NCBI GenBank assembly: GCA_965116495.1
Contig: OZ220696.1
Location: forward strand, 864,001 to 928,000
Length of the DNA: 64,000 nucleotides
Reading direction: 5' to 3'
From: Gammaproteobacteria bacterium
GTDB taxonomy: Bacteria > Pseudomonadota > Gammaproteobacteria > Eutrophobiales > Eutrophobiaceae
Shown here: piece after piece, positions 29,271 to 54,800 of the stretch
How positions within the stretch are numbered: position 1 is the stretch's first letter
How the letters are laid out: every line of letters begins with the position of its first letter
The notes under the pieces: generated by a model
Databases searched by the model: none
Told to the model about the DNA's origin: nothing
The model's input: only the letters and a program-made list of their open reading frames with translations
Program-made: the position numbers and the translations under genes

Positions 29271-29285
29271 TTGCTGTGGCGTCAG

Positions 29286-29720: not shown

Positions 29721-29949
29721 CTCCCTGATTGGCGAATTGGTCGAGGGCCAATTTGATAGTCTGGATAGCCTGACTACGGGTCACACTGGGAAAATTGTCA
29801 AGAAAATCATCGAGGCGGTCACCTGCTTCAAGGTGTTCCGATAGTATGCGTACAGGTACTCGCGTACCGGCGAAAACAGGCGTTCCTCCCAGGACCTCCG
29901 GGTCACAGGTAACAACCGAATGATATATCTGCGGATTCTGCTTGTCCAT
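29704..29949 (-). CDS. DUF433 family antitoxin
   Basis: DPEVLGGTPVFAGTRVPV...L..G..LDDFL.NFPSVT. Confidence 0.9.
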   Translation of the reverse strand: MDKQNPQIYHSVVTCDPEVLGGTPVFAGTRVPVRILSEHLEAGDRLDDFLDNFPSVTRSQAIQTIKLALDQFANQGDEITL

Positions 29950-30002
29950 GACGCCAATTATAGTACAACCAACACCTGTTCAACAATAAAGATATCCTAT
30001 GC

Positions 30003-33140: not shown

Positions 33141-33301
33141 TTCTGTATGCATCTTTAAACGCAATGCGTTACATTAGCTTAATCGTAGTTGTTGTTCAAA
33201 AAAGAAGACTCAGACAGTATCGCAGATGGATTTATTCCGAAAAGATTGTTTATTGGTGTGTGGCGTGCCATCTGTGTTCCTGAAGCACGCGTCGATTCTT
33301 G

Positions 33302-35328: not shown

Positions 35329-35947
35329 TTAATTGACAGAGACCCTGGACGTTGGCATGCCTACGTGGTTCATTGTAGTCTGGTTGCCGAGCAAAGGCGG
35401 CGAGTGCATTTCATTAAATTCGGCGTCGGACTGCAATTCCAGCCACACTTCACCAACATAGCGATCAGTTCTGCCGCTGGATGAATATGACGTTGTACAC
35501 ACACCTCCTCCACTGGGGGGGCAGGTGCCCGTCGTGGTGACTGTCTCGTTGTGATGGCAGTCATTGTCGGATGCCGTACAGTCCCACTCCATAGAGATGT
35601 CATACACCGTATTGCTGACCTTCTTGATTTCTTCACCAACTGATCCCAGGCCGTACCTGCGGTCAGTGTGGCCCGGGACCAGGTTGGTCGTCTCGTCTGT
35701 CATAAAGTCATGCCAACTGACTCCGCTCACCGGTTCGGAGAAAGTCACCCGCCACGTCACTTTCTGAGTGCTGCTCCCGCTTGCCGGTGTCGGTACGGGC
35801 GCTGTACAGATGTAAGGCTTATAAGATGTCCGATCCGCTTCAGCCAGAGGGCAGGTAATTTGCGCGCTTGCTTCACCGGCAAGGCCAAACAGGGCTACCC
35901 CCCCCCCAGAAGACGGCAATCGTCAGATATCGTATGATGGTGTTCAT
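35329..35947 (-). pseudogene. Secreted Ig-like/Cys-rich protein frameshifted at a G10 tract in its signal peptide
   Basis: GGAG RBS + ATG 35947 (MNTIIRYLTIAVFW) joins VALFGLAGEASA-QITCP only if the G run at 35898-35907 is 9 rather than 10; VTWRVTFSEPVSGV..DF Ig-like motif. Confidence 0.7.
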
Positions 35948-36397: not shown

Positions 36398-39300
36398 CTA
36401 CCCATCGTAATAGGGCCCTATTATATCCTCAATGCCAAACCCATCCACGCCGGCATCGTACCCCCCCACACCCCCATCCCCCAAGGTCAATGACAGCGCC
36501 GGGACGGACACGCGACCGGCCACCTGGGCGCTCAACTGGGACGCCGGGGGCGTCGGCCCCGTGCCCTCGAAAATCGCAAACTGGGATTCGTCCAGATCGG
36601 CGAGGTCGGTGTCCAGCAAGGTGATGCTGTCTTCCTTGCCGCTGGGATCCGTGTAAATGACCACGTCGTTGCCAATTTGTTCGGCATGGTTCGCCAGCAT
36701 CTCGTCGAAGTCGGCGAAGCCCACCTGGATGAGGAAGAAGCTGTCGCCCTCGTCCGGGTTGAAATCGGTGATCACGTCGCGGCCGAAATTGCCGTAGATG
36801 GTAAACCTGTCGTCGCCCGCGCCGCCGGTCATGCGATCGTGGCCGAAGCTACCGTTGATATAGTCCCTGCCGCCGCGCCCGTCGATCAAGTCGTTGTCGT
36901 CTGAGCCAACCAGCGAGTCCACCTCGTCGGTGCCGGTCATCGTGAGGCCGTTGTGGCGCCAGGGGGTGGGCGCCGGGTCGGATTCGGGTTCTGGCTCGGG
37001 TTCCGGGTCTGGCTCCGGGTCTGGTTCCGGCTCAGGTTCGGGTTCCGGGTCTGGCTCCGGCTCTGGTTCGGTTGAGGTCTCCTCGGGTTGTTGCTCCTCC
37101 TGTTCCGCTTCGATCTCGGTGAGGGCTTCCACCACCGGGTCCCAACGGCTCGCCGACCATCTGTCCGCCATCTCCTGCGCCTCGGTGGCGGTCATGGGCG
37201 TGTAGCCGTTGTCGTCGCCCAAGGCCGCGAGCACTTTCATCCAGCGGTCGACATGGGCCTGGCCGTTGTGGGTCTCGGCGGCATAACCGCGCACGTCGGC
37301 AATTAACTCGCTGTAGTCGTTCCCTTCATCCGCCTTCTTCCCCTGGCCGTTGTCGGGCGGGGTGAGCTGGTCGTCCAGGGTGGGGGCCGGCTCATCGTTG
37401 TCGGTGATGGTGGCCTCGCCGCTGGCATCGCCCAGGGTGGCGTTGCTGGGGGAGCTCAAGGTGACGGTGAAGGTCTCGTCGGTCTCATCCTCACTGTCAT
37501 CCGTGGTCTGCACCCAGAGGGTCGCGAATTGTGCGCCGGCGCTGATGGTCAGGGTTTGACCGGTCTGGCCGGTGTAGTCGCTGCCATCCGTTGCGGTGCC
37601 GTCGGTGGCAGTCCAGTTGACCGTAACGTCCTTGCCGGAGACCGCATCGAGCGAGACGGTGAACTGGAGCATATCACCTTCGGCCACGGTTACGTCGTCA
37701 ATGGACAATGAGGGCGCGGCGTCGTTGTCGGAGAGGGTGGCCTCCCCGGTGGCTGTGCCTATGGTGGCATTGGTAGGAGCGCTCAATGTAACAGTGAAGG
37801 TTTCATCCGGCTCGTCGATGGCGTCATCGGTGGTCTGCACGGTGATGGTGGCGCTCTGCTGACCCGCGGCGATGGTAAGGGTTTGACCGGCCTGGCCGGT
37901 GTAGTCACTGCCATCCACTGCTATGCTGTCGGACGTGTCCCAGGTAAGGGTGACGTCCTCCGTCCAGGTCTTGTCGAGACTCACAGTGAATTCGACCTCG
38001 TTGCCTTCGGTGACGGATACATCATCGATAGCGGCCACCGGCGGGGTGCTTGCCGCTTGCTGCGCCGCCTGCTCCGCTTCGATCTCGGTGAGGGCTTCCA
38101 CCACCGGGTCCCAACGGCTCGCCGACCATCTGTCCGCCATCTCCTGCGCCTCGGTGGCGGTCATGGGCGTGTAGCCGTTGTCGTCGCCCAAGGCCGCGAG
38201 CACTTTCATCCAGCGGTCGACATGGGCCTGGCCGTTGTGGGTCTCGGCGGCATAACCGCGCACGTCGGCAATCAGCGCGTCGTACCGGCCTGGCGGGGGC
38301 GGGTCATCGTTATCGGTGAGAGTAGCTTCGCCGCTGGCATCGCCCAGGGTGGCGTTGGTGGGGGAACTCAGGGTGATGGTGAAGGTCTCGTCGGTCTCAT
38401 CGTCACTGTCGTCGGCGGTCTGCACCGTGATGGTGGCGCTCTGCTGGCCGGCGGCGATGGTAAGGGTTTGACCGGTCTGGCCGGTGTAGTCACTGCCATC
38501 TGTAGCCGTGCCGTCAGATGTGTCCCAGGTAAGGGTGACGTCCTCGCCCCAGGTCTTGTCCAGACTCACGGTGAACTCGACTCTGCCCCCTTCGGTAACG
38601 CTCACATCGTCAATGGACGCCACCGGCGGAGTGGGCGGCGCTTGTTGTTTCGCCTCCTGTGCCGCCTCTATCTCAGTCAATGCCTCGGCCACCGGGTTCC
38701 AGCGCGGCCAGCCGTAACCGGCATAGTTCCGGGCTTCCTCCGCAGTCATGGGCGTATAGCCGTTGTCATCACCAAACGCCGCCAGTACCTGCATCCAGCG
38801 GTCCACGTGTGCCTGACCCTGGAACGTCTCCGCAGCATAGCCGCGCACCATGCCAATCAACTCGCTGTAGTCCGGGTCGGTTGCCTGCCCCGTGTCCTGG
38901 CTAGTGTCCTCGCTGAAATCTTCCGATGGTGTGATCGAAAAATCGTTCGTACTCAGATCTGACAGTTGCGTGTTCTTCAGGGTGACACGATTGGTCGTGC
39001 CGCTCTCATCCGTATAAATCACCACATCATTGCCGTCCTGCACGGCATGATTGGCCAGCATCCCGGCATAGTCGGCAAAGCCCACCGAGTCCAGGATGAC
39101 TATATCGCCCGCATCCGGGTCGAAGTCCTCCACCACGTCCTGCCCGTCACCGCCGTAAATATCAAACGCATCCGCGCCCGCGCCGCCGCGCAAGGTGTCG
39201 TTGCCCTGGGCGCCGGTCAGGACGTCGCTGTCCGCGCCACCTTCGAGCGTGTCATCGCCCGCACCGCCTTCGAGGAAATCCTTGCCGGGCCCACCCTTGA

Positions 39301-40723
39301 TAATGTCATCGCCGCCGTAGCCAAACAGATCGTCATCCCCGCCATGGCCCTCGATCAGGTCGCCGTCCATGTCGCCTTCCAGCACCTCACCGGCGTCGGT
39401 GCCGGTGACGGTGAGGCCGTTGTGTATGGTGAAGTTGGCTGCATTCAAATCCGACAGCAGTGTGTTCTTCAGGGTGACACTATTGGCCGTACCGCTCTCG
39501 TCCGTATAAATCACCACGTCATTGCCGTCCTGCACGGCATGGTTGGCGAGCATCCCGGCATAGTCGGCAAAACCGACCGAGCCCAGCCTGACCTCATCGC
39601 CGGCATCCGTGTCGAAGTCCTTAACCACGTCCCGCCCATGCCCTCCGTACACCACGAAGGCATCAGCCCCGGGCCCGCCGGTCAGGGTGTCGTTACCCGC
39701 ACCGCCAATGAGCCTGTCGTCCCCAGCGCCACCCATCAGAATGTCGTTGCCTGGCCCTGCGTTCAGGACGTTATCGGCCTCATTGCCCGTCAAACTATCA
39801 TTGCCACTGCCTGACGTGGCATTCTCGATCACCACGCCGTTGGCGATGAGAAAGCCACCAGGGATTTTCCATGCCCAGGAAACGTGGCCACCACCACCGG
39901 GTTCATATTCAAGCGTGGCCGCGCGCAAGTCGATCACGACATTGGCGGCGCCGGTGTACTCGATCACATCGGTCCCGCCGGTATCCCAGATGGTGTGATA
40001 GCCGTTTGCCTCTGCACGGGTGGCGGCCAGTGTATAAACATCATCGCCCCCTGCGTGGGTGGTGTTGGCGCCGTACATGTTTTGCAGGGCGGCAATGTCC
40101 AGCGCGCCGAACGTGGCATTGGCAGAGCCATCGCCGGGATCGTCCCAGCGACCGTCCCACGTATTTACAGTGTCCGCATTCGACGTCACGGTGAATATCG
40201 TCTGGTGCAGCCCGTAGCCGGATTTCATGATCTTGCTGAAGTTGCCTTCATCATCCGGGTGGGCCAGCCCCACTCCATGTCCTACTTCATGGAGGACCAC
40301 AAAGTAAAACCTCCCTCCCTGGTCGAATTGACCGCCGGGTTTATCAGTCCAGTCACCGCTTTTGGTGTTTGCCATGCCTTCCCCGCCGTTGCCGTTCCCA
40401 TCGGGGAAATCAAACTGGCCCCAAGGCATGCCGCGGCCCCCGGGTATACCACCAATGTGAATGCTGTTCTCTGGGGTGCCCTCGAAAACTCCGAACTTGA
40501 GATCGGCAGCATCCTTATCCGTCGTGAGTTGGAAATCAACGTTGATGAAGGTTTCCAGATTCTCGAAGACCGACCAGATCTGGGTTTTTTCATAGTCGGT
40601 CATGGTGCGGGCGTAGTACCAGTAGAAGGCAAGGTCACCTTCCTTGAACAAATACACCAGGACCGGATCCGAGGTATCCAGCTTGTGTTTTCCCTGAACG
40701 GCGTCAACAGGGTTATCGCTCAT
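36398..40723 (-). CDS. Serralysin-like M10 metalloprotease with RTX repeats, three Calx-beta domains and three Trp-rich helical repeats
   Basis: HEVGHGVGLAHP zinc motif, LDIAALQ.MYG, TIWDTGG.D, GGxGxD repeats, T.DGTA..GSDY...E.DETFTVTLS Calx-beta motifs; no signal peptide; C-terminal RTX block. Confidence 0.9.
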   Translation of the reverse strand: MSDNPVDAVQGKHKLDTSDPVLVYLFKEGDLAFYWYYARTMTDYEKTQIWSVFENLETFINVDFQLTTDKDAADLKFGVFEGTPENSIHIGGIPGGRGMPWGQFDFPDGNGNGGEGMANTKSGDWTDKPGGQFDQGGRFYFVVLHEVGHGVGLAHPDDEGNFSKIMKSGYGLHQTIFTVTSNADTVNTWDGRWDDPGDGSANATFGALDIAALQNMYGANTTHAGGDDVYTLAATRAEANGYHTIWDTGGTDVIEYTGAANVVIDLRAATLEYEPGGGGHVSWAWKIPGGFLIANGVVIENATSGSGNDSLTGNEADNVLNAGPGNDILMGGAGDDRLIGGAGNDTLTGGPGADAFVVYGGHGRDVVKDFDTDAGDEVRLGSVGFADYAGMLANHAVQDGNDVVIYTDESGTANSVTLKNTLLSDLNAANFTIHNGLTVTGTDAGEVLEGDMDGDLIEGHGGDDDLFGYGGDDIIKGGPGKDFLEGGAGDDTLEGGADSDVLTGAQGNDTLRGGAGADAFDIYGGDGQDVVEDFDPDAGDIVILDSVGFADYAGMLANHAVQDGNDVVIYTDESGTTNRVTLKNTQLSDLSTNDFSITPSEDFSEDTSQDTGQATDPDYSELIGMVRGYAAETFQGQAHVDRWMQVLAAFGDDNGYTPMTAEEARNYAGYGWPRWNPVAEALTEIEAAQEAKQQAPPTPPVASIDDVSVTEGGRVEFTVSLDKTWGEDVTLTWDTSDGTATDGSDYTGQTGQTLTIAAGQQSATITVQTADDSDDETDETFTITLSSPTNATLGDASGEATLTDNDDPPPPGRYDALIADVRGYAAETHNGQAHVDRWMKVLAALGDDNGYTPMTATEAQEMADRWSASRWDPVVEALTEIEAEQAAQQAASTPPVAAIDDVSVTEGNEVEFTVSLDKTWTEDVTLTWDTSDSIAVDGSDYTGQAGQTLTIAAGQQSATITVQTTDDAIDEPDETFTVTLSAPTNATIGTATGEATLSDNDAAPSLSIDDVTVAEGDMLQFTVSLDAVSGKDVTVNWTATDGTATDGSDYTGQTGQTLTISAGAQFATLWVQTTDDSEDETDETFTVTLSSPSNATLGDASGEATITDNDEPAPTLDDQLTPPDNGQGKKADEGNDYSELIADVRGYAAETHNGQAHVDRWMKVLAALGDDNGYTPMTATEAQEMADRWSASRWDPVVEALTEIEAEQEEQQPEETSTEPEPEPDPEPEPEPEPDPEPDPEPEPEPESDPAPTPWRHNGLTMTGTDEVDSLVGSDDNDLIDGRGGRDYINGSFGHDRMTGGAGDDRFTIYGNFGRDVITDFNPDEGDSFFLIQVGFADFDEMLANHAEQIGNDVVIYTDPSGKEDSITLLDTDLADLDESQFAIFEGTGPTPPASQLSAQVAGRVSVPALSLTLGDGGVGGYDAGVDGFGIEDIIGPYYDG
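36970..37070 (-). repeat. (EP/DP)n linker repeat
   Basis: EPEPEPDPEPEPEPDPEPDPEPEPEPESDP encoded by degenerate hexamers. Confidence 0.9.
37104..38272 (-). repeat. Identical 200-bp intragenic duplication (37104-37303 = 38073-38272); diverged third copy ~38657-38869
   Basis: Direct comparison; encodes VRGYAAETHNGQAHVDRWMKVLAALG...PMTATEAQ...RWDPVVEALTEIE. Confidence 0.92.
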
Positions 40724-40933: not shown

Positions 40934-41140
40934 ATGAACGAACATGCCCGTATCGTCATCATCGGTGGCGGCATCATGGGGGTTGGGTTGCTGTACCACC
41001 TGGCCGAAGAAGGCTGTACTGACGTTGTGCTCATCGAGAAGGGTGAACTCACTTCAGGTTCGACCTGGCACGCGGCGGGACAATGCCCGAACTTTGTGGG
41101 TAATTACAACCTCGCCAAAATCCATGAATACAGTATCTCC
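40934..41140 (+). pseudogene. N-terminal fragment of GcvT/dimethylglycine dehydrogenase-like FAD oxidoreductase
   Basis: IVIIGGGIMG..LLYHL, ELTSGSTWHAAG; similarity ends after ~68 aa. Confidence 0.88.
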
Positions 41141-41485
41141 GTGCCTGCGCCACCTGCTGTACGAGCAGCACAAACCGCGCAGTGCCGCTTTCTTCGACCG
41201 TGACATCGTCAATAGCCAGGCTCGGATTGGCGTCGGCGAAGATGAAGTCTGCCGCGTCGATCGTGGCGCCTGCCTGCGCGGTCAGGGTGATGCGGGGGGT
41301 CAGGTCCACGCGGCTATCCTGCGTTGCCCCGGAATAATCGAAAGTGTCTGTACCGCCGTCGTCGATCAGCGTGAAGGCGAACAGCCCGCCTGCCTGCATG
41401 TGCCGGGCAAGCTCGTCGAGGAAGCCGCCGGCATTGGCGTTGAAGCCGTAGGTGGTGTCGCCGGTGCGGATGGCATTGATTGTGA
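41141..41485 (-). pseudogene. Collapsed remnant of a second serralysin/Calx-beta gene
   Basis: RTGDTTYGFN..AG, FTLIDDGGTDTFDYSG..Q..RVDL, then TL......IDAADFIF, then PSLAIDDVTVEE.GTARF, all in one frame. Confidence 0.75.
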
Positions 41486-41673
41486 AGAGCGCGTATCTTG
41501 ATTTGTTCCACATGCACAAATGTCCCACATTTTGCTCGTATGTATCAAGCACCGTTCCCAACAATGATCAACAGAGGTTTTCTGAAGAAATTCGATTGGC
41601 AGTTACAAAATCCCCTCCTAACACGTTAGAATGGTATCCTCAAACCGTACGTATATTTTTTTGGGAGCACTAC

Positions 41674-41808
41674 ATGAAAGCAGTGGTATTGGAAGAACTC
41701 GGTGGGCCGGATCACCTGGAGATCAAGGAGGTGGATACGCCGGAACCGGGGCCGGGTGAGGTACGGGTAAGACTGAAAAATTCCGCCTTGAACCGGCGCT
41801 ATTACTGG
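41674..41808 (+). pseudogene. N-terminal fragment of zinc-type alcohol dehydrogenase/quinone reductase
   Basis: GGAG RBS; MKAVVLEELGGPDHL....VDTPEPGPGEVRVRL...ALNRR. Confidence 0.82.
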
Positions 41809-41810
41809 AA

Positions 41811-41909
41811 TCATTACGGCAACTGGAACGCAGCGCGGGCCGCTACGCGCTGGTCAGCATGTGTATCGGTATCGGACAGGGGATTGGCGTGGTGATTGAA
41901 CGTATGTAG
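41811..41909 (+). pseudogene. C-terminal fragment of a thiolase
   Basis: LRQLERSAGRYALVSMCIGIGQGIGVVIERM* with the thiolase CIGxGQG motif. Confidence 0.85.
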
Positions 41910-41921: not shown

Positions 41922-43319
41922 ATGAGGCAAAGTCCGATCAGAAACCCTGAGCGAATTTTGCTGCAATATGTCTGGGCCGTAGCCTTCCTGCTGGTCCCGC
42001 TGTCCCTGACCGCGGACACCGTCTCGCTCGACCTGACCCTGGAGCGGGCGATCGATCTTGCGCTGGAGCAGAACCGGCCGCTGCTTAACCGGCGCCTGGA
42101 TCGCGAGGTGCAAAAATTTTCCCTGGAAGTGGTTGAAGACCGTTGGACGCCTCGAGCCACCCTCCGCCCCTTCGTCAGCAAGGACCGGCAGGATCGCGAG
42201 ACGGGAGTCAGCAGCCAGATCAGCATGCGCGTGCCCACCGGCGGTCAGTTTGCCCTGCGCTGGGATGAAAGACTGTCCAGCGAGTTCGAGGATTCCCGCT
42301 CGCAGTCCCTGAGTTTTTCCCAGCCGCTGCTGAAAGGCGCCTGGATTGACATGGAGACTGCCCCGATCAGGCAGGCCCGACTGGGTGAAAGGCTTAACGT
42401 GCTCTCGTTTCGACAGACGGTGGAAGATCTGGTCGTTGCGGTCATCAGCGCATACCGCACGCTCATCGGCGCGGTGCGGCAAGTGGAGATTTCCGAGACC
42501 GCATTGCAGCGCGCGCGTGAGCAGTTGCAGGCAACCCGCGCCCTGATACGCGCCGGGCGCATGGCAGAGCGGGAGGCCGTGCGCGCCGAGGTGACCATCG
42601 CCACTCGAGAGTTGGCGTTGACCCAGGCGCGCAACCGCCTGGACGCCTCAAACTTCCGTTTGCTTGATATCCTCGAGCTGGGCAGTACGGTGCGTATCCA
42701 TCCGTTGGAAAGATTGAACGTTGAACCGAATCGAGCCACCTTCGAGGCAGTATTCGCCGAAGCGTTGCGCAAGCGCGCCGATTACCTTCAATCCGGGGCG
42801 CTGATCGACATTGCCCGCATCAACCTGGCGGTTGCCAAAAACAACCGGCTGCCGGACCTGTCCCTGGGGGTTGAGTTAAGCGATAACGACCCGGGACGCA
42901 AGGACGCGCAGGTTCGGCTGGACATTTCCATCCCTTTCAATGACCGTTTTCGCGACGTGGACCGTCTCAGGGCGCGCAACGACCTGCGCAAAGCCGAGAG
43001 AGCCCAGCTTGAGCTGCGCGAGTCGATCGACGTGTCCGTACGTCAGGCTGTCAACGACGTCAAGGTAGGGCATCGGTTGACGGAACTGGCCCGCGACGCG
43101 CGCCTGCTGGCAGAACAGAACCTGGACATTGAACGCGAGAAATTCGGTTATGGTCTGTCATCATCCTTCGAGGTATCGTCGTCCGAGGACGAACTCGTGC
43201 AGGCGGAGCAGGCCGAGGTGGATGCGATCCTCAGCTATCTCGACGTGCTGACGCGGCTTGACTATATCTCGGGCCGCACCCTGGACAGTTGGGGCATTCA
43301 AGTGGAAACTCTCCCGTAA
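41922..43319 (+). CDS. TolC family outer membrane factor
   Basis: Signal peptide, LTLERAI.LAL.QN, FSQPLLKGA, NRLPDLSL, two OEP-like halves. Confidence 0.88.
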   Translation: MRQSPIRNPERILLQYVWAVAFLLVPLSLTADTVSLDLTLERAIDLALEQNRPLLNRRLDREVQKFSLEVVEDRWTPRATLRPFVSKDRQDRETGVSSQISMRVPTGGQFALRWDERLSSEFEDSRSQSLSFSQPLLKGAWIDMETAPIRQARLGERLNVLSFRQTVEDLVVAVISAYRTLIGAVRQVEISETALQRAREQLQATRALIRAGRMAEREAVRAEVTIATRELALTQARNRLDASNFRLLDILELGSTVRIHPLERLNVEPNRATFEAVFAEALRKRADYLQSGALIDIARINLAVAKNNRLPDLSLGVELSDNDPGRKDAQVRLDISIPFNDRFRDVDRLRARNDLRKAERAQLELRESIDVSVRQAVNDVKVGHRLTELARDARLLAEQNLDIEREKFGYGLSSSFEVSSSEDELVQAEQAEVDAILSYLDVLTRLDYISGRTLDSWGIQVETLP

Positions 43320-45112
43320 TGGCAAACGACCCTCAAGACATTTACCGGACTTTGCTGGAGAACCTGTCCGACGGTGTGATGGCAGTTGACGTTGATGGGG
43401 CCGTGCGCCTCACCAACCCTGCCTTTTGCCAAATCTTCGGACTCGAGTCCGAGGCGGTAACCGGTCGCCCCTTTGCAGAAATATTTGTGGCATTTGAGGG
43501 CTTTGACGAGTTCGTCGAGATTATCCTGGACGCCATTACCGAGCAGGGCGAGATCAAGCGCCGCGTCGCGAGTGTGCATATCGGTGACGCAGTCCGCTCG
43601 TTGTCCGTCACGACCTCGTACCTGCTGGCATCCGGGCCAAAACAGACCGGGCAGGTAGCAATGATTGCCGTGGTTTCCGACATCTCCGAGATCAAGGAAC
43701 TGCGCGAGACCGAACTGCGCATGGCGAAAGTCGTCGAGAATCAGCTCAGTGAGCTGCAGAACGCCTATCGGGATATTGAGTCCCGCAACGAGACGCTGTC
43801 CGTGATGATGAAGAAGGTCCAGGCAACGCGTGGTGTCGCAGCGTTATTGGTGGCCGGACTGTTTCTCGCCATTGGTGGTTGGTACATTCAGCCGCTGGAT
43901 ATCATCAATTCCGACCCGGCGCCGGCGCTGTTGGCGGATGGCCAGGCCGCCGACCAGGCCACTGACCCGGAGACCTTGCAGACCATAACTCTTGCACCCC
44001 GGGAGTTCCGCTCGACCCTCGCGGTGCGCGGCAACCTGACACCGGGACACGTCGTGAAAGTCGTCAGCTCGGTCGATAGCCATGTGAGTGGGGTCCACGT
44101 TGCCCATGGCGAGAGAGTGGACGCAGGCGACGCGCTGCTCGAGCTTGAGCCCGGTCAGCTACTGATGGATTACCGTCGGATCCAGATCGAGTATATCCAG
44201 GCGCGCGACAAGCTGCTCGAGCTTGAAGACTGGGAAAGCAGCGACGAAATGGCGGGTGCCCGGCGCCTGTTGCGACGGGCAAAAATAGCGCTCGAAGATT
44301 CTGAGCTGAGGCTCCGGCGCACTGCTTTTCTGCTGGAAAAGGGGATAGTCCCTACCTCCGAGCACGAATCTGCGCAGCAACAACACCAGGAGCGCAAGCT
44401 GGATTTTGAACAAGCCGAGCGGGATTTGGAATCGACCAGAGAAAAAGGAGATGCTGAGGCAAGACGGGTCGCGCGCCTACAAGTGGAGAATGCGCAAAGC
44501 CAGGTTGAACAGCACGAGCAGAAACTGAATCAACTTGAGCTCGAGGCCCCGATTGCAGGGATCGTTGTTGCCGATGCAGGCATTGCGAATAAGCCCCTGG
44601 CCAAAGGCCGTCCGGTGGCCCAGGGTGAGCTGCTGCTGAGCATTGCCGATTTCGAGCAGATTTCGGTAGCCTCCAGTGTCGATGAGGTGGATGTCAGGAA
44701 GATCGAACCCGGCCAGCGCGCCTTGGTTACCGGCCCCGGGTTTCCGGGCCTGGAAATCGGCGGAACCGTTACCCGGATCTCGTCGCGCGTACTTGGCGGC
44801 AGGAGGCAGCGGGGCGCGCCTGAGTTCGATATCGTGATTGCCCTGGACAGGTTGGATGCGGCCGCGCGTGAACAGTTACGGGTCGGCATGTCGGCCTACG
44901 TCACGATCATCGTACACAGCGATCCGGAGGCGTTGCTGATTCCGATCGACGCGGTGCAGGAGTCCGGCGCTGAAACCTGGGTGCGTGTGCTCGACCGGAA
45001 CACTGCCGCGGTGGAGCAACGCGCGGTCAGACTGGGCTTCACGACACTGGATTCGGTCGAAGTGATAGCAGGACTCGCGGTCGGGGAAGAAATCGTCCTC
45101 CCGGAAAGATGA
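43319..45112 (+). CDS. Periplasmic adaptor (MFP) with N-terminal PAS domain
   Basis: LLENLSDGVMAVD.DG.V...NPAF..IFG......GRP...VSDISE PAS signature, coiled coil, TM helix, then lipoyl halves (V..GERV.AGD.LL; APIAGIV), VDEVDV.KI.PGQ, LRVGMSA, ALLIP..AV; TAATG coupling to tolC. Confidence 0.88.
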   Translation: MANDPQDIYRTLLENLSDGVMAVDVDGAVRLTNPAFCQIFGLESEAVTGRPFAEIFVAFEGFDEFVEIILDAITEQGEIKRRVASVHIGDAVRSLSVTTSYLLASGPKQTGQVAMIAVVSDISEIKELRETELRMAKVVENQLSELQNAYRDIESRNETLSVMMKKVQATRGVAALLVAGLFLAIGGWYIQPLDIINSDPAPALLADGQAADQATDPETLQTITLAPREFRSTLAVRGNLTPGHVVKVVSSVDSHVSGVHVAHGERVDAGDALLELEPGQLLMDYRRIQIEYIQARDKLLELEDWESSDEMAGARRLLRRAKIALEDSELRLRRTAFLLEKGIVPTSEHESAQQQHQERKLDFEQAERDLESTREKGDAEARRVARLQVENAQSQVEQHEQKLNQLELEAPIAGIVVADAGIANKPLAKGRPVAQGELLLSIADFEQISVASSVDEVDVRKIEPGQRALVTGPGFPGLEIGGTVTRISSRVLGGRRQRGAPEFDIVIALDRLDAAAREQLRVGMSAYVTIIVHSDPEALLIPIDAVQESGAETWVRVLDRNTAAVEQRAVRLGFTTLDSVEVIAGLAVGEEIVLPER

Positions 45113-45143
45113 ACGGCAACCCCTGCTATTGCCAGCCACCGTC

Positions 45144-45899
45144 ATGAACGCGCCAGATAAAATGTTGCGCCTGGTTGACGTGCGCAAATCCTACCGCATC
45201 GGGCCGGCTACCAGGGAGATCCTGCAAGGCATCCACCTGGAAGTCAACACTGGTGACCTGCTATCGATCATGGGGCCCTCGGGTAGCGGCAAGACTACGT
45301 TGATGAACATCATTGGCCTGCTCGACCGTCCCGGCGCCGGCGACTGTTACCTCAATGGGCGCGCGATCTCCGGGTTGACGGATGACGAGCTGTCCTCGCT
45401 GCGTAACGAGCATATCGGGTTTGTGTTCCAGTCCTTCCAGTTGTTGCCGCAGTTGACGGCCATCGAAAACGTTTGCCTACCGCTGGTGTACCGGGGTATG
45501 GGGCAGGCGGAGATGAGGCAGCGGGCGCAGACCCTGCTGGCGCGCGTGGGCATGGATGACTGGGCGGGGCATCGGCCCGACCAGCTCTCCGGCGGACAGA
45601 AGCAGCGAGTTGCCATTGCCCGGGCACTGGCGGGAGAGCCGGCGCTGTTGCTCGCGGATGAACCCACCGGCGCCCTGGATAGCGACACCGCGACCGAGGT
45701 CATGACCCTGCTCCTGGAATTGAACTCGGAGCAGGGGGTGACGATCCTGATCATCACCCATGACCCACTGGTGGCGCGGCAATGCACGCGCCAACTGCGC
45801 ATCAATAACGGCTTGTTACAGGAGAAGGGAATGTCTGCCCGGGGGGTTGCCGCCACGCGGCAACCGCTTGCAGGCGCCCAGGCAGGGTATGCGGGTTAG
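45144..45899 (+). CDS. MacB/LolD-type ABC ATPase
   Basis: GPSGSGKTT, IGFVFQSFQL, LSGGQKQRVAIARA, ADEPTGALD. Confidence 0.95.
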   Translation: MNAPDKMLRLVDVRKSYRIGPATREILQGIHLEVNTGDLLSIMGPSGSGKTTLMNIIGLLDRPGAGDCYLNGRAISGLTDDELSSLRNEHIGFVFQSFQLLPQLTAIENVCLPLVYRGMGQAEMRQRAQTLLARVGMDDWAGHRPDQLSGGQKQRVAIARALAGEPALLLADEPTGALDSDTATEVMTLLLELNSEQGVTILIITHDPLVARQCTRQLRINNGLLQEKGMSARGVAATRQPLAGAQAGYAG

Positions 45900-47106
45900 A
45901 TCTCTTGCAATCCTGCAGGCAAATGCCCGCGAGGCGGTTAACAGCCTGCGCAAGGCAAGGCTGCGCACACTGCTGGGGCTGCTTGGCATCATGATCGGTA
46001 TCTCATCGGTTATTACAATGGTCTCGTTGGGCGAAATAGCCAGAGAGCAGGCGCGCAAAGAATTCGAAGCTATCGGCACCGACATCCTGATCATTCGCAA
46101 GTCGTACGAGACCTCGACCCCAGAGCAGGAGGCGGCGGAAATTGACCTGGCGGATGCCGTAGCATTGGCGCCGGCGCTTCCTTCAATTGCCGAGGCTGCG
46201 CCCAGGATCGCGAGCTATGGGGAATTCCGTTACGCCGGCAAGACAGTCGGCGAGGGAACCATCCAGGGCGTCACCGCGTCGTACTTCAGTGTGAACCGTT
46301 TGTCCATGGCATCCGGCCGGTTTATCTCGAACCTGGATGCCAACCGCCACTACTGTGTCGTTGGCGCCGGCATTGCCGAGGCAATGCGCCAGGTCGGGGT
46401 ACAACAGCTTGTGGGACAGATCCTGGAGATTGACGAGGAACTCTTCACGGTCCTGGGCACATTAAATGACAAACAGGAGAGTTACACCTTGCCCATCCGG
46501 GTGGAGGCAAATAATTCTGTCTTCATACCAATCACGACCGCGCAGCGCCTCGACTCCAACCCGGAGATCGACGTGATCGTTGCCAGGTCAAGCGCCGGCG
46601 TCCATTACGAGCAGGCGGTGCAAGACGTTCATTCATTCATGCGGAACAGGTCGCGGGATCTCCTCCTGGACATCATCACCGCCAAGGAATGGATAGCCCG
46701 GATGGAAGCGCAAATGCGCATCATGACCCTGCTGCTGGCCGCAGTGGGCAGCATCTCCCTCATCGTCGGCGGAATCGGGATCATGAATATCATGCTGGTG
46801 TCCGTAGCGGAACGCCGCCGCGAGATCGCGATCCGGCGTGCGCTGGGCGCGCGCCGGGGGGACATTCAAAGCCAGTTCCTCATTGAATCCATTATCCTGA
46901 CGGTAGCGGGGGGAGCGCTTGGCGTTGTGCTCGGCTTGCTGGTGACCTGGGTAGCCTGCCAGTTCACCGAATGGGAGTTCCTCATCTCAGGCATATCCGT
47001 GGTAAGCGGTATCGGTACCGCCTCCGCAGTCGGCCTGTTCTTCGGCTTCCAGCCCGCTCGTCAAGCCTCCCGCCTGGACCCGATCACCGCGCTTCAGGGA
47101 AGCTGA
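45889..47106 (+). CDS. MacB/FtsX-type ABC permease
   Basis: RTLLGLLGIMIGI.SVI, ISLIVGGIGIMNIMLVSV.ERRREIAIRRALGA, FG..PAR.A.RLDPI.AL. Confidence 0.93.
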   Translation: MRVRSLAILQANAREAVNSLRKARLRTLLGLLGIMIGISSVITMVSLGEIAREQARKEFEAIGTDILIIRKSYETSTPEQEAAEIDLADAVALAPALPSIAEAAPRIASYGEFRYAGKTVGEGTIQGVTASYFSVNRLSMASGRFISNLDANRHYCVVGAGIAEAMRQVGVQQLVGQILEIDEELFTVLGTLNDKQESYTLPIRVEANNSVFIPITTAQRLDSNPEIDVIVARSSAGVHYEQAVQDVHSFMRNRSRDLLLDIITAKEWIARMEAQMRIMTLLLAAVGSISLIVGGIGIMNIMLVSVAERRREIAIRRALGARRGDIQSQFLIESIILTVAGGALGVVLGLLVTWVACQFTEWEFLISGISVVSGIGTASAVGLFFGFQPARQASRLDPITALQGS

Positions 47107-47240
47107 ACGGGTGTCAAAAACAACGGCCATGGTCTGAGGGCAGGTCGCGGTGCAAGCGCACCACTGCTGCGCAAGCAGGAGTCTCCATCAAGAGTTGTGA
47201 TCAACATCCCCAAGAGAGATCCCCAGGAGAGAGAACACTG

Positions 47241-47440
47241 CAGGGCTATCTCAAAGTCGGTATACGCCCCGCTGTCATTCCGGGCTTGGTCCGGAATCCA
47301 ATGAAAACGTAATGTTTTATAAACAATGAATGATTGTTTGACTGGATTCCTGCCCCTGCTCAACGCCATACAGGGACAGGCTTGTGCAGGAATGACGGGT
47401 GGGAGATTTGAAAGCCGGTAATGACTTTAAGATGACCCTG
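47241..47440. mobile_element. 200-bp MITE-like element (inverted copy of 4015-4186 plus 28-bp nested insert)
   Basis: Reverse complement aligns end to end with 4015-4186; no flanking direct repeat visible here. Confidence 0.88.
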
Positions 47441-47458
47441 TGTTCCTAACAAAGTGCA

Positions 47459-47487
47459 TTGACAAGTGTATGATTTCACGGTATAAT
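47459..47487 (+). promoter_or_regulatory. Consensus sigma70 promoter
   Basis: TTGACA-17 bp-TATAAT. Confidence 0.85.
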
Positions 47488-47540
47488 ACCACACATTGCA
47501 AGGCACAATCCGTGCCCGCGACAGCAATGGGAGACCACAG

Positions 47541-48092
47541 ATGACCGCTACCTCACAAGCTGTTTTTTCACACCTTCAACCTGGGCGGGATTGCCGCTAC
47601 AAGGGTTTGCGCGCATTGCCGAGAAGCGCCGCCTGCGCTGTCGCACTGGCGCTTGGAATGGCGCTGACAGCCCCGGCCACGTTAGCGTGGGATGCATCAA
47701 CCACGGAGGGTCAAGAGCTGGTAATGCAATTGGAGATACCCTATGGGAGCGAAGGAGAGTCCTATCGCTGGTCATGGAAGACGGAAGATGATACGGCCAC
47801 GAGCGGGGCCGACTATACATCAAAATCAGGCACGGTGACATTCACCTGGGATGACGATAAGCAATACATTAAAGTCAAGACACTGCTGGATTGTGACATG
47901 AATGAAACTGCCGAATACTTTAATCTGAACTTTTCCAATTTCCAGGTCAATAACAGTCGGACTAATGGCTGGGCATCGCCGAGTTGGTCGTTCAGCGACC
48001 CGAATTGGGGAAGCACCTTCACGAGACAGGCACGGATCAAGAATCGATATAGCATGACCAATAAGCAGAAAGAACAAGCAGGCTGTTCTTAA
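47541..48092 (+). CDS. Small secreted single Calx-beta-domain protein
   Basis: GGGAG RBS; extended signal peptide ending ALGMALTAPATLA; W.TEDDTATSGADYTS.SGTVTF...I.VKTL.D...E..EYF.L. Confidence 0.78.
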   Translation: MTATSQAVFSHLQPGRDCRYKGLRALPRSAACAVALALGMALTAPATLAWDASTTEGQELVMQLEIPYGSEGESYRWSWKTEDDTATSGADYTSKSGTVTFTWDDDKQYIKVKTLLDCDMNETAEYFNLNFSNFQVNNSRTNGWASPSWSFSDPNWGSTFTRQARIKNRYSMTNKQKEQAGCS

Positions 48093-48151: not shown

Positions 48152-48188
48152 CAGGACCGGGGACAGAACAGGTCTGTCCCCGGTCCTG
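48152..48188. repeat. Perfect 16-bp hairpin (REP-like, possible terminator)
   Basis: CAGGACCGGGGACAGA-ACAGG-TCTGTCCCCGGTCCTG followed by GTTTTT. Confidence 0.75.
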
Positions 48189-48788: not shown

Positions 48789-48859
48789 CAGCCTGTATTC
48801 GTAGGTGGTTACCCGAATGTTCTCATGTGCTACGAGAGGGTAGGGCGCGGTGTTCAATT

Positions 48860-51800
48860 TTGAAGATCATTTCGGCAAGAAAAACTAATGAGTGGCGCGC
48901 CGGCGTGTTTTGCTTGTTGGCGTTGCTGCTTGCGGGTGGTTGGTCAACCGCGGTCCAGGCCCAGAACAGTGCATACCTGACGCTTGACCTGGTTCAGATA
49001 CGGGCCAATGCGCTGCACGGCGCCACGATCAAAATCACTCCGAAAAACGCCACTTTCCTCGGTGCCGGCGGGGGCGCCGGCTTCGATCTCGAGGACTTTG
49101 TGCATTCGGATGATTGGGATTCCGAAAGCGGCCAGCTCACCGCTGCCGCCATAGCCGGCGAAATCAGGCTGAACGCCACGGGTCTTTCCAGAATCACATT
49201 GCAGGGCGCGCCTGCGGGGCTGAGCATCGCGCGCGCGAAGCTGCTGGCGCGCGAGCAACCCCACTCGCACGGCAGGGCCAGCAAAGGCCATCGCTCCGCG
49301 CAGATCACCCTGGCCTACACCGGCTCCGGCATCAATGCCGACGTTGCGGTCACGGTGGCTGTGCAGGGCGGCGCCGATGGCCTGCTTTCGTATGGCAATC
49401 AACACGCGGGCTACCCGGGCGCATCCTGCTGCACTGCCGGCTTCACCATCAGGACCGGGACCCTCACCGACGGCGTCAGCGTGAATCCGGCCTCCCTGGC
49501 CGTCACCGAACGCGGTGGCGCCAGCGCCGAGGCCGGCTACAAGGTGGGGCTGCTGACGGACCCGGGCGCCGATGTCACCATCACGGCCACGGTGCCGGCG
49601 GCCAATACCTCCGATGTTGAGGTCAAGGCGGGCAGCGGCTCATTCGGCAGCGCCGCGACCCTGACCTTCACCCACGGGAGCGGCGGCAACTGGACCCAGG
49701 CGCAAACGGTGACGGTGCGGGCGAAGAACGACAGCGACACCGCCGACGAATCGTTCAACATCACTCATTCGCTGAGCGTGGCGAGCGGGCCCTACCGAAC
49801 CATAACGCCGGCCTCGGTCGCGCTGGCCGTCACCGATGCCGGCGCCGGCGTACCGCTGTCCTTCAGCGCCGCGGCTTACCGCGCGAACGAGCCTGCGTCC
49901 ACCACCAACGCGGCGCTGGGCCTCACGCTGTCGAGCACGCGCCCCTCGGCCACGACGGTGACCGTCGAGAGGACGGGCGGCAGCGCCACGGCGGACGACG
50001 ACTATACGGCCGGCCCCTGGACCGCGACCATCGCCGCGAACACCATCACCGGCACGGTCAACATTCCCATCCGTCACGACACGACGGACGAGCCCAACGA
50101 GACCGTCGAGCTCAGCATCCGGGCGAGCAGCCTGCCGACAGGGGTGGTACCGGGCAGCCAGGGAACGGCGACGCTCACAATCACCGACAACGACGCAACC
50201 AGCGTGACGCTGGCGGGTTCCGGCACGGTGAAGGAGGACGGCAGCGATGCGGCGGACGTGGCGGTCACGCTGGGCCGCAAGCTGGCGGGCGGCGAGTCGG
50301 TGACCGCACCGCTGGTCATCGCGGGCACCGGCATCACCCGCAAGGACTACGATATCGGATTGAAAACCGGCGGCAACTACAACCGGGGGGTGTCGCTCAA
50401 TAGCGCCAGCCCCTACAGCCGCTGGAGCCCCGCGGTGGTGTTCACAGGCTCCGACGTGAATACGGTGCGGGTGGCGACGCTTGCAGTGACCGGGAAGGAG
50501 GACACCCGCGACGAGGGCGCTTCGGAGACGCTGACCGTAAACTTCGGCAGCGGCGACCAGGCGGTCAGCAGCAACCTCGACCGCCCCTCGGGTACCGGCG
50601 CCGCCGGCACCACCGCCTCGGGCTCGGCGAGCGTGGCGATCACCGACAACGACCAACCGCCGTCCCTTGTGGTCAGCCCGCGCATCATCAGCGCCCGCAA
50701 CCTTCAAGACGGCGGCACGGCCACGCTCACGCTGACACCGAAGAATTCGACCTTTTTCGGCGCGGGCGGCGGTGGCGGCCACAGTGGCAGCAATCCATCC
50801 GCACCCTATGTGTTTTTCGACGACCGCAACGACCGGGGCGAAATCCCCAACACCGAGGTTCGCCTCAGCGCGACCGGCTTGTCGAAAATCAGCTTGTCGG
50901 GCACGTCGGCACCTCTGACCATCAGCGCCGGCCGGCTGCTCCCGATCCAGTACGACGTGCACGGCGCGGAACAGCACCGGTCCGTGGAGATCGACCTGAG
51001 CTACGCCGGCCCGCCGATCACAGCGGACGACCAGGTGACAGTCACGGTGGACAGCGACCTGCTGCGATTCGGAGATCAGAGCGGCGGCAGCCCCGCCAGC
51101 CAGTCCGCCCGTTTCACGATCAAGCCACTCGACCCCAATGCCGGTCTGACTATCAGGGAAACCGGCAGCCCCGCCGAGACCGTCGTTGGCGAAAACGGCG
51201 GAGCGGACCGCTACGACGTGGTGCTGAGGACCCGACCGACGCATCCTGTCACCGTGACGGTAACGGCGGGCGCCGGAACGCTGGTGGATGGGCCCGACGC
51301 GGGCAACGCGGGCGCGTCTACCGAAACCCTCACATTCAACCCCACCGGGAGCGCTCTCTGGAGCACGCCACAGACCATCACCGTGACCGGCGTCGATGAC
51401 GACATCGACAACGCCGGCAACGCCCGCACCGTGATGATCGATCACGCGGCCAGCTCGAACGACCACAACTACGCCGTCAACGACGCCGGCAGCCTGAGCG
51501 TGAAGGTGACTGACGATGACCGCGCCGGGGTGACTGTCTCTCACGCCGCGCACACGCTGGCCGAGAACGGCGGCGTCGCCACCTACACCCTGAAGCTCGA
51601 CTCGCAGCCGCTCAAGGCGGTGACGATCACTGTGGACGCCGGCGACGGCAGCGTCGTGAAGGTGGATGGACCGGACAGCGCGACCGACTTCACCAACGCG
51701 GAAGCCCTCACCTTTACGCCCTCGAACTGGAATTCGGCGCAACAAATCAGCATCGAGGGCCAGAACGACAATGCCGTGACCTACCTGCCGCGCAGGGCGA

Positions 51801-54800
51801 CGATCGCGCATTCGATCGCCTCGCTGGCACTCGGCGATGGACGCCGCTACCTCCCGGACATGGCCATTGCCGGCGTGGACGTGAGCGTGTCCGACGATGA
51901 CAAGCCGGTCCTGACGCTCACGGAGAAGAACGGGAACACGGAAATCCGCGAGGGCGGCAGCGCCACCTTCACCGTGACCTCGAGCGACCCCGCGCCGAGC
52001 GGCGGCTTGCCGGTCACGCTGCCGACGCTGAGCTTCTCCGACGGCTACAGCGGCAGCCTGTCGCCCGCCACGATCACCATTCCGGCTAATGCCACGACCG
52101 TGGATTTCAACGTCGATATCGACGACCGCGCCGACGAGCCGGACGGGACGTTTACCGTGTCCCTGAACACCGGGACGCACTACGAGCTCGGCGCCGCTTC
52201 CTCGCTGGAGCTGGCGGTCACGGACAACGATCCCACGTCCGTGACCCTGGCGGGCAGTCCGGCCGGCTACCTGGTCGAGGGCGGCGCCAAGACCCTCACG
52301 CTCACCCTGGGCCGGGGCCTGGTCAAGGGCGAGACCCTGACGGCGCCGCTCACTTTCGCGGGCACGGCGGCGCGCAACACCGACTACAGGCTCACCACAA
52401 CTGCGGCGAGGGGCGTGGCCTACAACAACCTCGGCAGCGGCAGCGCGAGCGTGGTGTTCACCGGCCCGGCCACGGGAACCACCGCGACCGTGGCCACCAT
52501 CAACTTCACCGCCACCTCGGACAGCGTAGTCGGGAGCACCACGGAAACGGTGGGCATCGGGCTGGGCACAGCCACGAATACGGGTTCGGGCGGCGGCGTG
52601 ACCGCAACCGACAACCTTCCCGGCTTTCACATCGTGGACTCCGTAGCGCCCTCCGAGCCGATTGTGACGCTGTCGCAGCCCGACACGACGACGCTGAAGG
52701 AGGGTGGGGACGCGGTGGAGTTCGACCTGCTCGTGAGCCCGCCTTACTTCCAGCAACCGTTCTCGCTGGTAACGCTTGAACTTTCAGGCAAGGCGGCCAG
52801 TGGCCAGGACTATCGCCTGGAAGCTGTGAGCGGGGGATCGGTCAGTTCGTGGGCCTTTTTCGTGAACCAGGGCGTGTCTTCGATGCGGCTGCGGCTGGTG
52901 CCGCTGGCGGACGACCGGGATGAGCCGAGCGAGTCCATCGTGATTTCGGTGCCGGATCAACTGCAGGTGTACCGCGATGCGGGCAACGCCGCCTACACGG
53001 TGAGCGCGCCGCGATCGGTGAAATTCACGCTGACGAGCGCCACCGCACCCCCGCCACCACCCCCGCCGGTCGAAACTCCCGGGGTGACGGTCTCGACCGC
53101 ATCGCTCGATCTTGCCGAGGGCGGTTCGACCGGCAGCTACACGGTAGTGCTCGACAGCAAGCCGACCGCGAACGTGACGGTTACCGCCGCCAGCGGCGAC
53201 GCGGCCACGGTTCGGGTGCAGGCCCCGGGCGGCAATCCGGGCGCCAGCGCCACCCTCACCTTCACGCCAACGACCTGGGACCAGACGCAGGCCGTGACGG
53301 TGACGCCGCAAGACGATGCAAACGCCGACGACGAGACCGTGACGATCGCGCACGCGGTGAGCAACACCGGCGGCTACGGCGGGGTGACCGCAGACTCCGT
53401 CACCGTCACGGTGGACGATGACGAGACGCCGGTGGCGCCAACCCCTTCAGTGTCCATTGCGCCCACCTCGGCCAACGCCGTCACCGAAGGCGCCGCCGCC
53501 ACCTTCACGCTCACCGCCAGCCCGGCGCCGCAAAGCACGATCACGGTGGACGTCAACGTGGTGGACAGCGGCAGCTTTGCCGATAGCGGTCAGGCCGGGT
53601 CGCGCCAGGTCACCATTGGCACGGGTGGCAGCGGTACGCTCACCGTCACCACCGACAACGACAGCGCCGACGAGCCCAACGGCACACTCACCGCGACCGT
53701 CAACAGCGGCACGGGCTACACGCCGTCCAATACCAACGCGTCAGCGTCGATTTCGGTCAATGACAACGACGATCCTCCGCCGGCGACGCCGGTGGTGAGC
53801 ATCAGTGGCGGCGGCGCGATTACCGAAGGCGGCACGGCCACCTTCAACCTGAGTGCCAGTCCGGCGCCACAAAGCACGATCACGGTGGACGTCAACGTGG
53901 TCGACAGCGGCAGCTTCGCCGGTAGCGGACAGGCCGGGTCGCGCCAGGTCACCATAGGCACGGGTGGCAGCGGCACGCTCACGGTCACCACCGACAACGA
54001 CAGCACCGACGAGCCCAACGGCACGCTCACTGCCAACGTCACCAACGGCACGGGCTATGCGCCATCCAGCAGCAACGCATCGGCATCGATTTCGGTCAAT
54101 GACAATGACGATGCCATCATCCCGAGCGCCTGCGTGTCGGACACACTTCTGCAACAGGTTGAGGACTATTACGATCACAATAGCAGTAATTCGCCCGGCT
54201 ACGGGCATAACTGGTTCCGCGTACTCGTTGCGTTTGGTGCGCGCAGTCCTTCCGACTGGACAGCGGACAACCGCGTTATCGAGCCGATGACCGCTGCGTC
54301 CGCACGCGTGCGGGAGGCGAGTTGGTTTGGCTGGGGACCGGTTGCGGACGCGCTGGAATGTCTGGAAGCGGTTAACCCCGCCCCCGATCCCGAGATCGCC
54401 ATCGCCGGTGGCAGCGCGGTCACCGAGGGCGGCAGCGCCACCTTCACGTTCACTGCGACCCCGGCGCCGCAGAGCACGATCACGGTGAACGTCAACGTGG
54501 TGGACAGCGGAGACTTTGCCAATAGCGGCCAGGCGGGTTCCAGGACCGTCACCATCGGCGCCGGTGGCAGCGGCACGCTCACCATCACCACCGATGACGA
54601 CAGCACCGACGAGCCCGATGGCACACTCACCGCGACTATTGCCAGTGGTCAAGGCTATACGCCGTCCAATACCAATGCTTCAGCGTCAATCGCGGTCAGC
54701 GACAACGACGATCCGCCCCCGCCCGTAGTCAGCATCGCCGGTGGCAGCGCTATTACCGAGGGCGGCACCGCCACCTACACACTCACCGCGACCCCGGCGC

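Follow-up and report, generated by a model that had tools for sequence, protein, structure and literature searches.

A conserved MacB-type pump with a PAS-bearing adaptor, and small Calx-beta proteins as its candidate cargo, in a gammaproteobacterial genome

What does a tripartite pump export when its adaptor carries a PAS domain ahead of the membrane helix, and could that domain set the activity of the pump? This question is raised by a tolC–adaptor–ATPase–permease operon in a Gammaproteobacteria bacterium of the Eutrophobiaceae (assembly GCA_965116495.1, contig OZ220696.1). The window, meaning the whole stretch of DNA analysed, covers 64,000 nt (positions 864,001 to 928,000 of the forward strand). 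A preliminary description had proposed a sensor-coupled exporter with Calx-beta proteins as possible cargo. Judging from sequence and genomic context, we lean slightly towards a MacAB-TolC-type pump that would act as the second step in a two-step secretion of small Sec-exported proteins and would be tuned by its cytoplasmic PAS domain. The export of such proteins by the pump, for which the genomic context argues, is probable when taken by itself.

The four genes were found intact, closely coupled and all on the plus strand, as the preliminary description had them. The first (41922–43319, +) encodes an outer membrane channel of the TolC family whose N-terminus carries a hydrophobic signal (OEP, PF02321, E 1e-35). 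Its stop codon is overlapped by the ATG of the adaptor gene (43319–45112, +), whose 597-aa product consists of a PAS domain, a coiled coil, a transmembrane (TM) helix and a MacA-like periplasmic part. Pfam and NCBIfam identified it as a PAS domain plus an HlyD-type adaptor, with a single hydrophobic segment (residues 167–193) located after the PAS domain and coiled coil. In the AlphaFold model (predicted local distance difference test, pLDDT, 83; predicted template modelling score, pTM, 0.46), a PAS domain at residues 5–121 is followed by one continuous helix at 123–186 and the periplasmic part. The best Foldseek match of the model was MacA (9QGY, E 5e-26), with 5NIK also among the best. These three lines of evidence bear out the earlier claim of a PAS domain and coiled coil ahead of the TM helix, and this topology would place the PAS domain in the cytoplasm. 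The third gene (45144–45899, +) encodes an ATPase of the MacB/LolD type by Pfam and NCBIfam, with intact Walker A, signature, Walker B, D-loop and H-switch motifs. The permease (45889–47106, +; MacB_PCD E 2e-34, FtsX E 5e-20) has four hydrophobic segments and a large periplasmic domain after the first TM helix. By the features of its permease, ATPase, adaptor and channel, the operon is a MacB-type (type VII ATP-binding cassette, ABC) tripartite pump, with assembly and export predicted. No regulator family was matched in the 12 open reading frames (ORFs) scanned between 30003 and 58573, in line with the earlier statement that none is nearby. Elsewhere in the pump family, one adaptor (P0129, 1064 aa) is fused to a MacB permease, and one locus (L008, 11376–13847) encodes ATPase and permease as one ORF.

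The candidate cargo is encoded downstream of the permease (47541–48092, +). It is a small signal-peptide protein with a single Calx-beta domain (PF03160, E 1e-9), with a mature form of ~135 aa and ~15.5 kDa, an isoelectric point of 4.6 and two cysteines; its model resembles the Calx-beta folds of NCX1 CBD1 and integrin beta4. The perfect promoter reported ahead of this gene was confirmed: TTGACA-17-TATAAT at 47459–47487 (+) matches the sigma-70 consensus at 12 of 12 positions and is the sole such match among 10 sites in 15 kb, where shuffled sequences lead one to expect 6.5 weaker sites. In the closest relative (G093), the orthologue is an 89%-identical gene 1.76 Mb away from the operon, and both hexamers are retained upstream of it. 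A terminator-like hairpin with a 16-bp stem and a T-run follows the gene (48152–48188, +), and a second member of the family occurs in the window's own genome (C1:4333213–4333893). Across the family, a signal-like hydrophobic stretch was present in 81 of 83 scorable small Calx proteins (6 more were not scorable) and in 0 of 23 internal Calx domains, these calls resting on hydrophobicity and not on SignalP. No lipobox and no Tat motif was found among the small Calx proteins. Their first mature residue varied, with Gly in 9 of the 61 that have an A-x-A site (a crude call). By eye, they share no C-terminal signal, and a subset has a short Phe-Gly-Glu-type tail. A homologue search with the alignment of these proteins yielded chiefly pieces of larger, multi-domain Calx proteins.

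A PAS fusion unique to this genome was an outcome that the preliminary description had foreseen, and it is contradicted by the spread of the family. Residues 1–260 of the adaptor matched 129 clusters, with a PAS family in 119 of the 120 clusters listed. When 50%-identity representatives were searched with a profile, about a hundred of the best 150 matches were further PAS-adaptor clusters of full length, with members named from Desulfoplanes and Ca. Wallbacteria. In GTDB genomes, 144 stretches encode an adaptor relative, and 79 loci were taken for comparison. All 79 belong to metagenome-assembled genomes, of Gamma- and Alphaproteobacteria, Binatia, Acidobacteria, Gemmatimonadetes and Thermodesulfobacteriota. 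Pump gene order is conserved across them, and a TolC-family channel was found in 77. Being conserved over 129 clusters, 79 loci and several phyla, the fusion was rejected as a deletion artefact. Relatives of the adaptor were present in 7 of 400 sampled Thermodesulfobacteriota (the centre genome aside), and none of the 169 matching records of a plasmid collection spans 80% of the adaptor. The operon DNA is 90–94% identical between Binatia and Alphaproteobacteria chromosomes, which indicates recent horizontal movement. Two pairs of near-identical loci (L018/L019 and L076/L077) lie in draft genomes of different phyla, reflecting either very recent transfer or mis-binning. The carrier taxa include Ca. 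Poriferihabitaceae and Ca. Porisulfidus, names that point to sponge symbionts, and the isolate prefixes of carrier genomes are ones we take to come from sponge studies. The carriers are thus likely sponge-dwelling, and the window's own organism may share this habitat.

The loci were then compared for what surrounds the pump. When their ORFs were clustered, one family dominated apart from pump genes and shadow frames, namely small secreted proteins. A small single-Calx ORF was detected by hidden Markov model within 10 kb of the operon in 47 of the 79 loci (34 of the 55 loci of at least 20 kb). For 44 of these 47, no more than about 3 kb separates the operon from the nearest such ORF, which may be on either side and either strand, so that all four orientations occur. 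These proteins form 31 subfamilies at 50% identity, with up to five per locus. In the 19 genomes for which all candidates were scored, 11 have an operon-adjacent small Calx gene, compared with 0.83 expected from genome-wide counts, and three genomes outside the seed set (G181, G179 and G215) again have one within about 3 kb of the operon. A Cys-rich signal-peptide family occurs in 21 of the 79 loci and, together with the small Calx family, covers 53.

The link between pump and small Calx genes persists when the genes are far apart. Among the 126 genomes of the order to which the window belongs, stand-alone small Calx ORFs were present in 8 of 11 carriers of the PAS-adaptor and in 0 of 115 non-carriers among the matches listed; the eight positive carriers have the eight closest adaptors (at least 59% identity). 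Seven of 13 non-carriers in the genus contain Calx-beta domains, in large ORFs only. In Ca. Poriferihabitaceae (69 genomes, every match listed), small Calx genes were found in 12 of 15 carriers and 0 of 54 non-carriers. In an alphaproteobacterial family (37 genomes) the counts were 5 of 14 carriers and 1 of 23 non-carriers, and its carriers divide into those with a close adaptor (5 of 7 positive) and those with divergent copies only (0 of 7). The exceptional non-carrier, G641, is a draft genome in which part of a tolC gene was found, at 64% identity to that of the window, and no permease. Pooled over the three lineages, 25 of 40 PAS-adaptor genomes have small Calx genes vs. 1 of 192 genomes without the adaptor. 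No p-value is claimed, because kin genomes are not independent. Since the pump is present in nearly every genome with this family, it probably exports the small Calx proteins. The related operons thus go together with small secreted proteins, among them the family to which the 47541–48092 product belongs, and the preliminary description's other foreseen outcome, homologous operons with no such tie, did not hold.

More distant operons have other small secreted neighbours. Seven tandem small signal-peptide proteins, containing Cys and belonging to no Pfam family, are encoded beside the pump in L096 (14176–16912). Locus L125 (G649:C3:2774849–2786259) encodes seven small CVNH-like signal-peptide proteins, of which five exceed the Pfam CVNH cut-off, a cut-off passed by L125 proteins only. 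In L125, L085 and L102, an Lnt-like gene lies beside the pump and is in each case a second genome copy; among the 79 close loci, such a gene was found in one. The five upstream L125 proteins have glycines after an Ala-x-Ala site (by eye), and a Gly-tipped mature N-terminus is described as the signature of AatD substrates (PMC7943197). By analogy, the L125 operon is a candidate for an Aat-like system of glycine acylation in a bacterium that is not enteric. DsbA-like genes lie near the pump in 10 loci (7 of these are paralogues in two genomes), which would fit periplasmic disulfide formation of the kind described for STII (PMC5985334). Genome G225, in which no adaptor was found, fuses Cys-rich and Calx domains in one ORF, with a tail that is autotransporter-like by eye, and for that reason these domains likely act outside the cell. 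The Cys-rich family itself has one to three repeats of ~70 residues (L005 13801–17513, L007, L009, L017, L053, L080), sometimes behind a Calx-beta domain. It had no Pfam or PDB match, and its likeness to cyanovirin, at only 0.76 in ESM Atlas, is a lead. Four genomes (G639, G642, G650 and G652) have 5–7 PAS-adaptor matches each, several of them beside Cys-rich secreted proteins and a DsbA/ScsC-like gene.

The second part of the question concerns the PAS domain (43331–43681, +; adaptor residues ~5–121), which scored E 1e-9 with PF00989, over the cut-off, and E 2e-15 with TIGR00229. Its degree of conservation equals that of the periplasmic domains (61% vs. 60–66%). The helix that follows it (43682–43888, +), a coiled coil continuing into the TM helix, is the most conserved part of the adaptor, with a mean pairwise identity of 73% vs. 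58–66% for the other adaptor domains. In an alignment of 206 sequences, the spacing from the PAS-terminal Asp to a conserved helix Ala was 28 in 171 sequences, 21 in 34 and 14 in one. The length of the linking helix thus shifts by 7 residues only, in 206 of 206, whereas control loops vary freely. In relatives the PAS position is sometimes taken by other sensor domains. Among 150 matches listed, 32 were scanned, mostly picked for an unusual N-terminus, and these gave 18 with GAF, one with PAS+GAF, two with GAF+PAS and one with a cyclic nucleotide (cNMP)-binding domain. A FastTree tree was built on the adaptor part (last 385 residues), without one permease fusion and without matches below 480 aa; four changes of the GAF label are needed on it. 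The PAS domain ends in a D-I-T/S-E motif with the coiled coil next, and its nearest solved relatives, all weak matches, were the PAS domains of WalK, TyrR and FixL and the cytoplasmic PAS of CitA. Coiled coils linked to PAS domains change length by heptads, which is the signalling-helix rule. The PAS-signalling helix modules of WalK, FixL, CitA and AtoS share with the adaptor this motif and the heptad-varying coiled coil after it, but their output is a kinase or cyclase, while that of the adaptor would be a TM helix and a periplasmic part. A predicted complex of two copies of the PAS-coiled coil with two copies of the ATPase scored 0.10, vs. a mark of 0.32, and counts neither for nor against a contact.

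The swapping of sensor domains, together with a helix that varies in heptads, suggests a signalling role. According to a review, pumps are crippled when MacA loses its cytoplasmic region or its TM helix, or DevB its N-terminus, and MacA requires both its cytoplasmic part and its TM helix to stimulate the ATPase (PMC5985334). The N-terminus of the adaptor is a plausible control point in light of these deletions. That the PAS domain is a true signal input that gates the pump is plausible, and in our view about as likely as not.

Taken together, the mechanism that we lean towards would proceed as follows. Small proteins such as the 47541–48092 product would enter the periplasm via Sec and have their signal cleaved, with disulfides forming there where the cargo has cysteines. 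The cargo would be captured by the periplasmic domain of the MacB-type permease and the adaptor, and ejected through the pump's own TolC. Input to the PAS domain would shift the coiled-coil helix and so alter coupling to the ATPase.

Several observations weigh against parts of this mechanism. On the sensing side, no position of the PAS domain has a conserved His or Cys in the 206 sequences (His reaches at most 20% anywhere and Cys37 48%), so it lacks the conserved heme-ligand His or flavin-adduct Cys of the heme FixL-type and LOV PAS domains. The heptad phase is equally expected of any structural coiled coil, and a single origin of the GAF form is all that the well-supported branches of the adaptor tree require. 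On the export side, the cargo candidates have no terminal signal in common, the window pump is without an AatD-like gene, and the 15.5-kDa Ig-like candidate is larger than the 10-kDa dispersin, which has been proposed as a possible upper size bound for folded MacB cargo (PMC5985334). No small Calx gene was detected in 15 of the 40 carriers, and some operons (e.g., L100, L118 and L128) have no obvious small secreted neighbour. The co-occurrence counts are inflated by kinship and by a shared mobile cassette, and the small-Calx profile was built on operon neighbours. At most 29 candidates were scored per genome in the window's own order, and 27 weak matches there fell outside those listed.

Much of this would also fit a pump that exports small proteins while its PAS domain and coiled coil are structural only, dimerising or spacing the adaptor hexamer and being required for a constant ATPase coupling, without sensing. 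The missing cofactor ligand and the strong conservation of the coiled coil agree with that, at least one relative (L086) without an N-terminal domain keeps the whole operon, and the N-termini of MacA and DevB are required for activity but, as far as the available part of PMC5985334 goes, are not known sensors. A spacer would have no need, however, of a slot that accepts three unrelated classic sensor folds (PAS, GAF and cNMP-binding) as well as tandems, and we regard a purely structural role as rather unlikely. A further account leaves the PAS domain aside and makes the small Calx proteins periplasmic accessories (a carrier, chaperone or plug) of a pump that exports a small molecule, lipid or peptide. 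The tight dependence at genome level would suit an accessory as well as a cargo, and the account is also favoured by a size that approaches or exceeds the bound proposed for cargo (PMC5985334). Accessories would hardly be so diverse and multi-copy, though, nor be missing in those 15 carriers and replaced elsewhere by unrelated small secreted families, and the same domains occur as autotransporter-like passengers; we consider this account improbable.

An ordinary efflux pump for small molecules or antimicrobials, with small secreted genes that merely share mobile islands of surface-protein genes, would explain the horizontal mobility of the operon across phyla and its position amid surface-protein genes and gene fragments, and MacAB pumps also confer drug resistance (PMC5985334). 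This explanation is very improbable in our view, given that operon-distant small Calx genes are still confined to carriers among the matches listed, that these genes flank the operon in every orientation, and that the Lnt-like and DsbA-like genes nearby suggest a cargo of protein. Signalling could also run inward, with the PAS domain reporting the status of pump or cargo to a cytoplasmic regulator. Sigma-54 activators with a common N-terminal region do lie beside L096, L097 and L099 (Thermodesulfobacteriota), two of them also with anti-sigma or STAS genes, but no such regulator family recurs near the 79 close loci or in the window ORFs scanned, and we give inward signalling hardly any credence.

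The genes flanking the operon bear on which Calx-beta proteins could be its cargo. The three that the preliminary description listed, an RTX protease, the small protein and a giant protein, are all present. The giant one (48827–58573, +; 3248 aa) needed correction, as it ends in a predicted autotransporter barrel. This prediction comes from ESM Atlas (score 0.96; 28 of 30 matches PF03797), while Pfam and NCBIfam gave no barrel match in this protein. As a predicted autotransporter, it was rejected as pump cargo. The genome encodes an even larger Calx-beta repeat protein (G000:C1:2499426–2524487; 8353 aa), whose autotransporter-like C-terminus is 38% identical over 919 aa to that of the window's giant. 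The protease (36398–40723, −) is of the serralysin M10 type by Pfam and NCBIfam, with RTX repeats, three Calx-beta domains and no signal peptide, and is likely a type I secretion substrate. Elsewhere in the genome (G000:C1:3669911–3674910) lies a PrtD-HlyD-TolC operon, in which PrtD and HlyD both score above the cut-off of their models, in line with the earlier suggestion that this protease would more likely need a classical HlyB/PrtD system. With that system present and no signal peptide, the protease too was rejected as pump cargo. The genome contains 19 ORFs with at least three RTX repeats, and it also encodes an NHLP bacteriocin-type ABC exporter pair (G000:C1:2319279–2325755; TIGR03796 over the cut-off). 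Helical insert domains of no known family lie between the Calx-beta domains of both large proteins, three copies in the protease and two in the giant. A small protein without a Pfam match (35329–35919, −), with homologues near the operon in 3 of the 79 loci (L018, L040 and L059), is a possible second cargo.

Three gene fragments occupy 40944–41850, between the protease gene and tolC. Two are gene starts, one resembling (by eye) a sarcosine/dimethylglycine dehydrogenase gene and the other a zinc-binding oxidoreductase gene that is present in full length close to the operon in L046 and L047. The third, on the minus strand, corresponds to the C-terminal part of a serralysin (PF08548). The region looks like an insertion or recombination scar. 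To the left of the island (24391–34828), a Fic-domain protein is encoded along with a type III restriction-like helicase (ResIII), which has large partners encoded upstream of it.

Few MacB-type pumps are, to our knowledge, known to export proteins (STII, dispersin and CexE), and we know of none whose activity is set by a sensor domain in the adaptor. In the full-text literature, judged mostly from abstract openings, we found no published PAS-, GAF- or cNMP-fused MacA-type adaptor and no small-Calx cargo family. The words PAS and GAF are both absent from 300,000 of the 748,000 characters of PMC8277102, and PMC13274458, in the part available, mentions PAS and adaptor separately only and is unrelated. 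With its many naturally occurring combinations of pump and cargo, and with sensors exchanged in nature, the pump family makes two questions testable, namely how the adaptor drives the ATPase and what size a folded cargo may reach. The MacAB-TolC structure left unresolved how the cytoplasmic end and TM helix of MacA drive the ATPase (PMC5985334). The family further suggests that symbionts of many phyla have a route of secretion, and a set of small proteins secreted, in common. Calx-beta domains are core parts of the sponge aggregation factor (PMC11670116), which is itself Calx-beta-rich, and an interaction of the small Calx proteins with it, or any host target for them, is speculation. A still wider proposal, which we find doubtful as a whole, would make this a novel class of two-step secretion, with a swappable PAS/GAF/cNMP adaptor sensor, traded among sponge symbionts of different phyla and releasing, on an intracellular cue, lectin-like proteins and small Calx-beta proteins that engage the aggregation factor of the host.

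Compared with known systems, the window operon stands outside type I secretion, where HlyB/PrtD is a six-TM type IV exporter with a fused ATPase that works with HlyD; the permease here is MacB-type, and the HlyD model scored 36 vs. 209 bits. MacB pumps draw their substrates from the periplasm, including the Sec-exported STII and dispersin (PMC5985334). DevBCA-HgdD of Anabaena is likewise a split MacB-type pump, with an adaptor N-terminus needed for export, but it exports glycolipid, has no sensor domain reported in the available part of the same source (PMC5985334), and its DevB model gave the window adaptor 49 vs. a cut-off of 129. E. coli MacAB-TolC shares the adaptor fold, permease topology and ATPase family, and exports the disulfide-bonded protein STII in two steps, after Sec and DsbA (PMC5985334). 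Its ATPase is fused to the permease, whereas the window has separate genes and a dedicated tolC in the operon, and the window adaptor has ~165 extra cytoplasmic residues (PAS domain and coiled coil) in place of the short tail of MacA. All scores fall below the equivalog cut-offs (MacA 48 vs. 342 bits; MacB 249 and 204 vs. 966 bits), and by these measures the pump is not MacAB-TolC proper, the macrolide pump.

The Aat system (AatPABCD) of enteroaggregative and enterotoxigenic E. coli, which exports dispersin (Aap) and CexE, has in common with the window a MacB-type permease, a separate ATPase, an adaptor and its own TolC in one operon. The window operon thus has an aatPABC-like four-gene set, likened by component types and not by Aat sequences. 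The genes for small Sec-exported Aat cargo lie near the operon or further off (PMC7943197), which is similar here, and like that cargo the small Calx proteins are Sec-type and without a lipobox by the hydrophobicity test. The differences are the cytoplasmic PAS domain of the window adaptor, the cargo and the acyltransferase. Aat cargo has an invariant Gly after the signal peptide, while the small Calx candidates have a Calx-beta fold and no invariant Gly, and AatD, an Lnt-like glycine acyltransferase, is absent from both operon and genome, where the single lnt lies 1.1 Mb away. The pump would work like Aat but, having neither an AatD-like gene nor that Gly, is not a member. It is a real and conserved, apparently unpublished variant of the MacAB-TolC/Aat kind, and the new finding is the link of a PAS-adaptor pump to a family of small Calx-beta candidate cargo.

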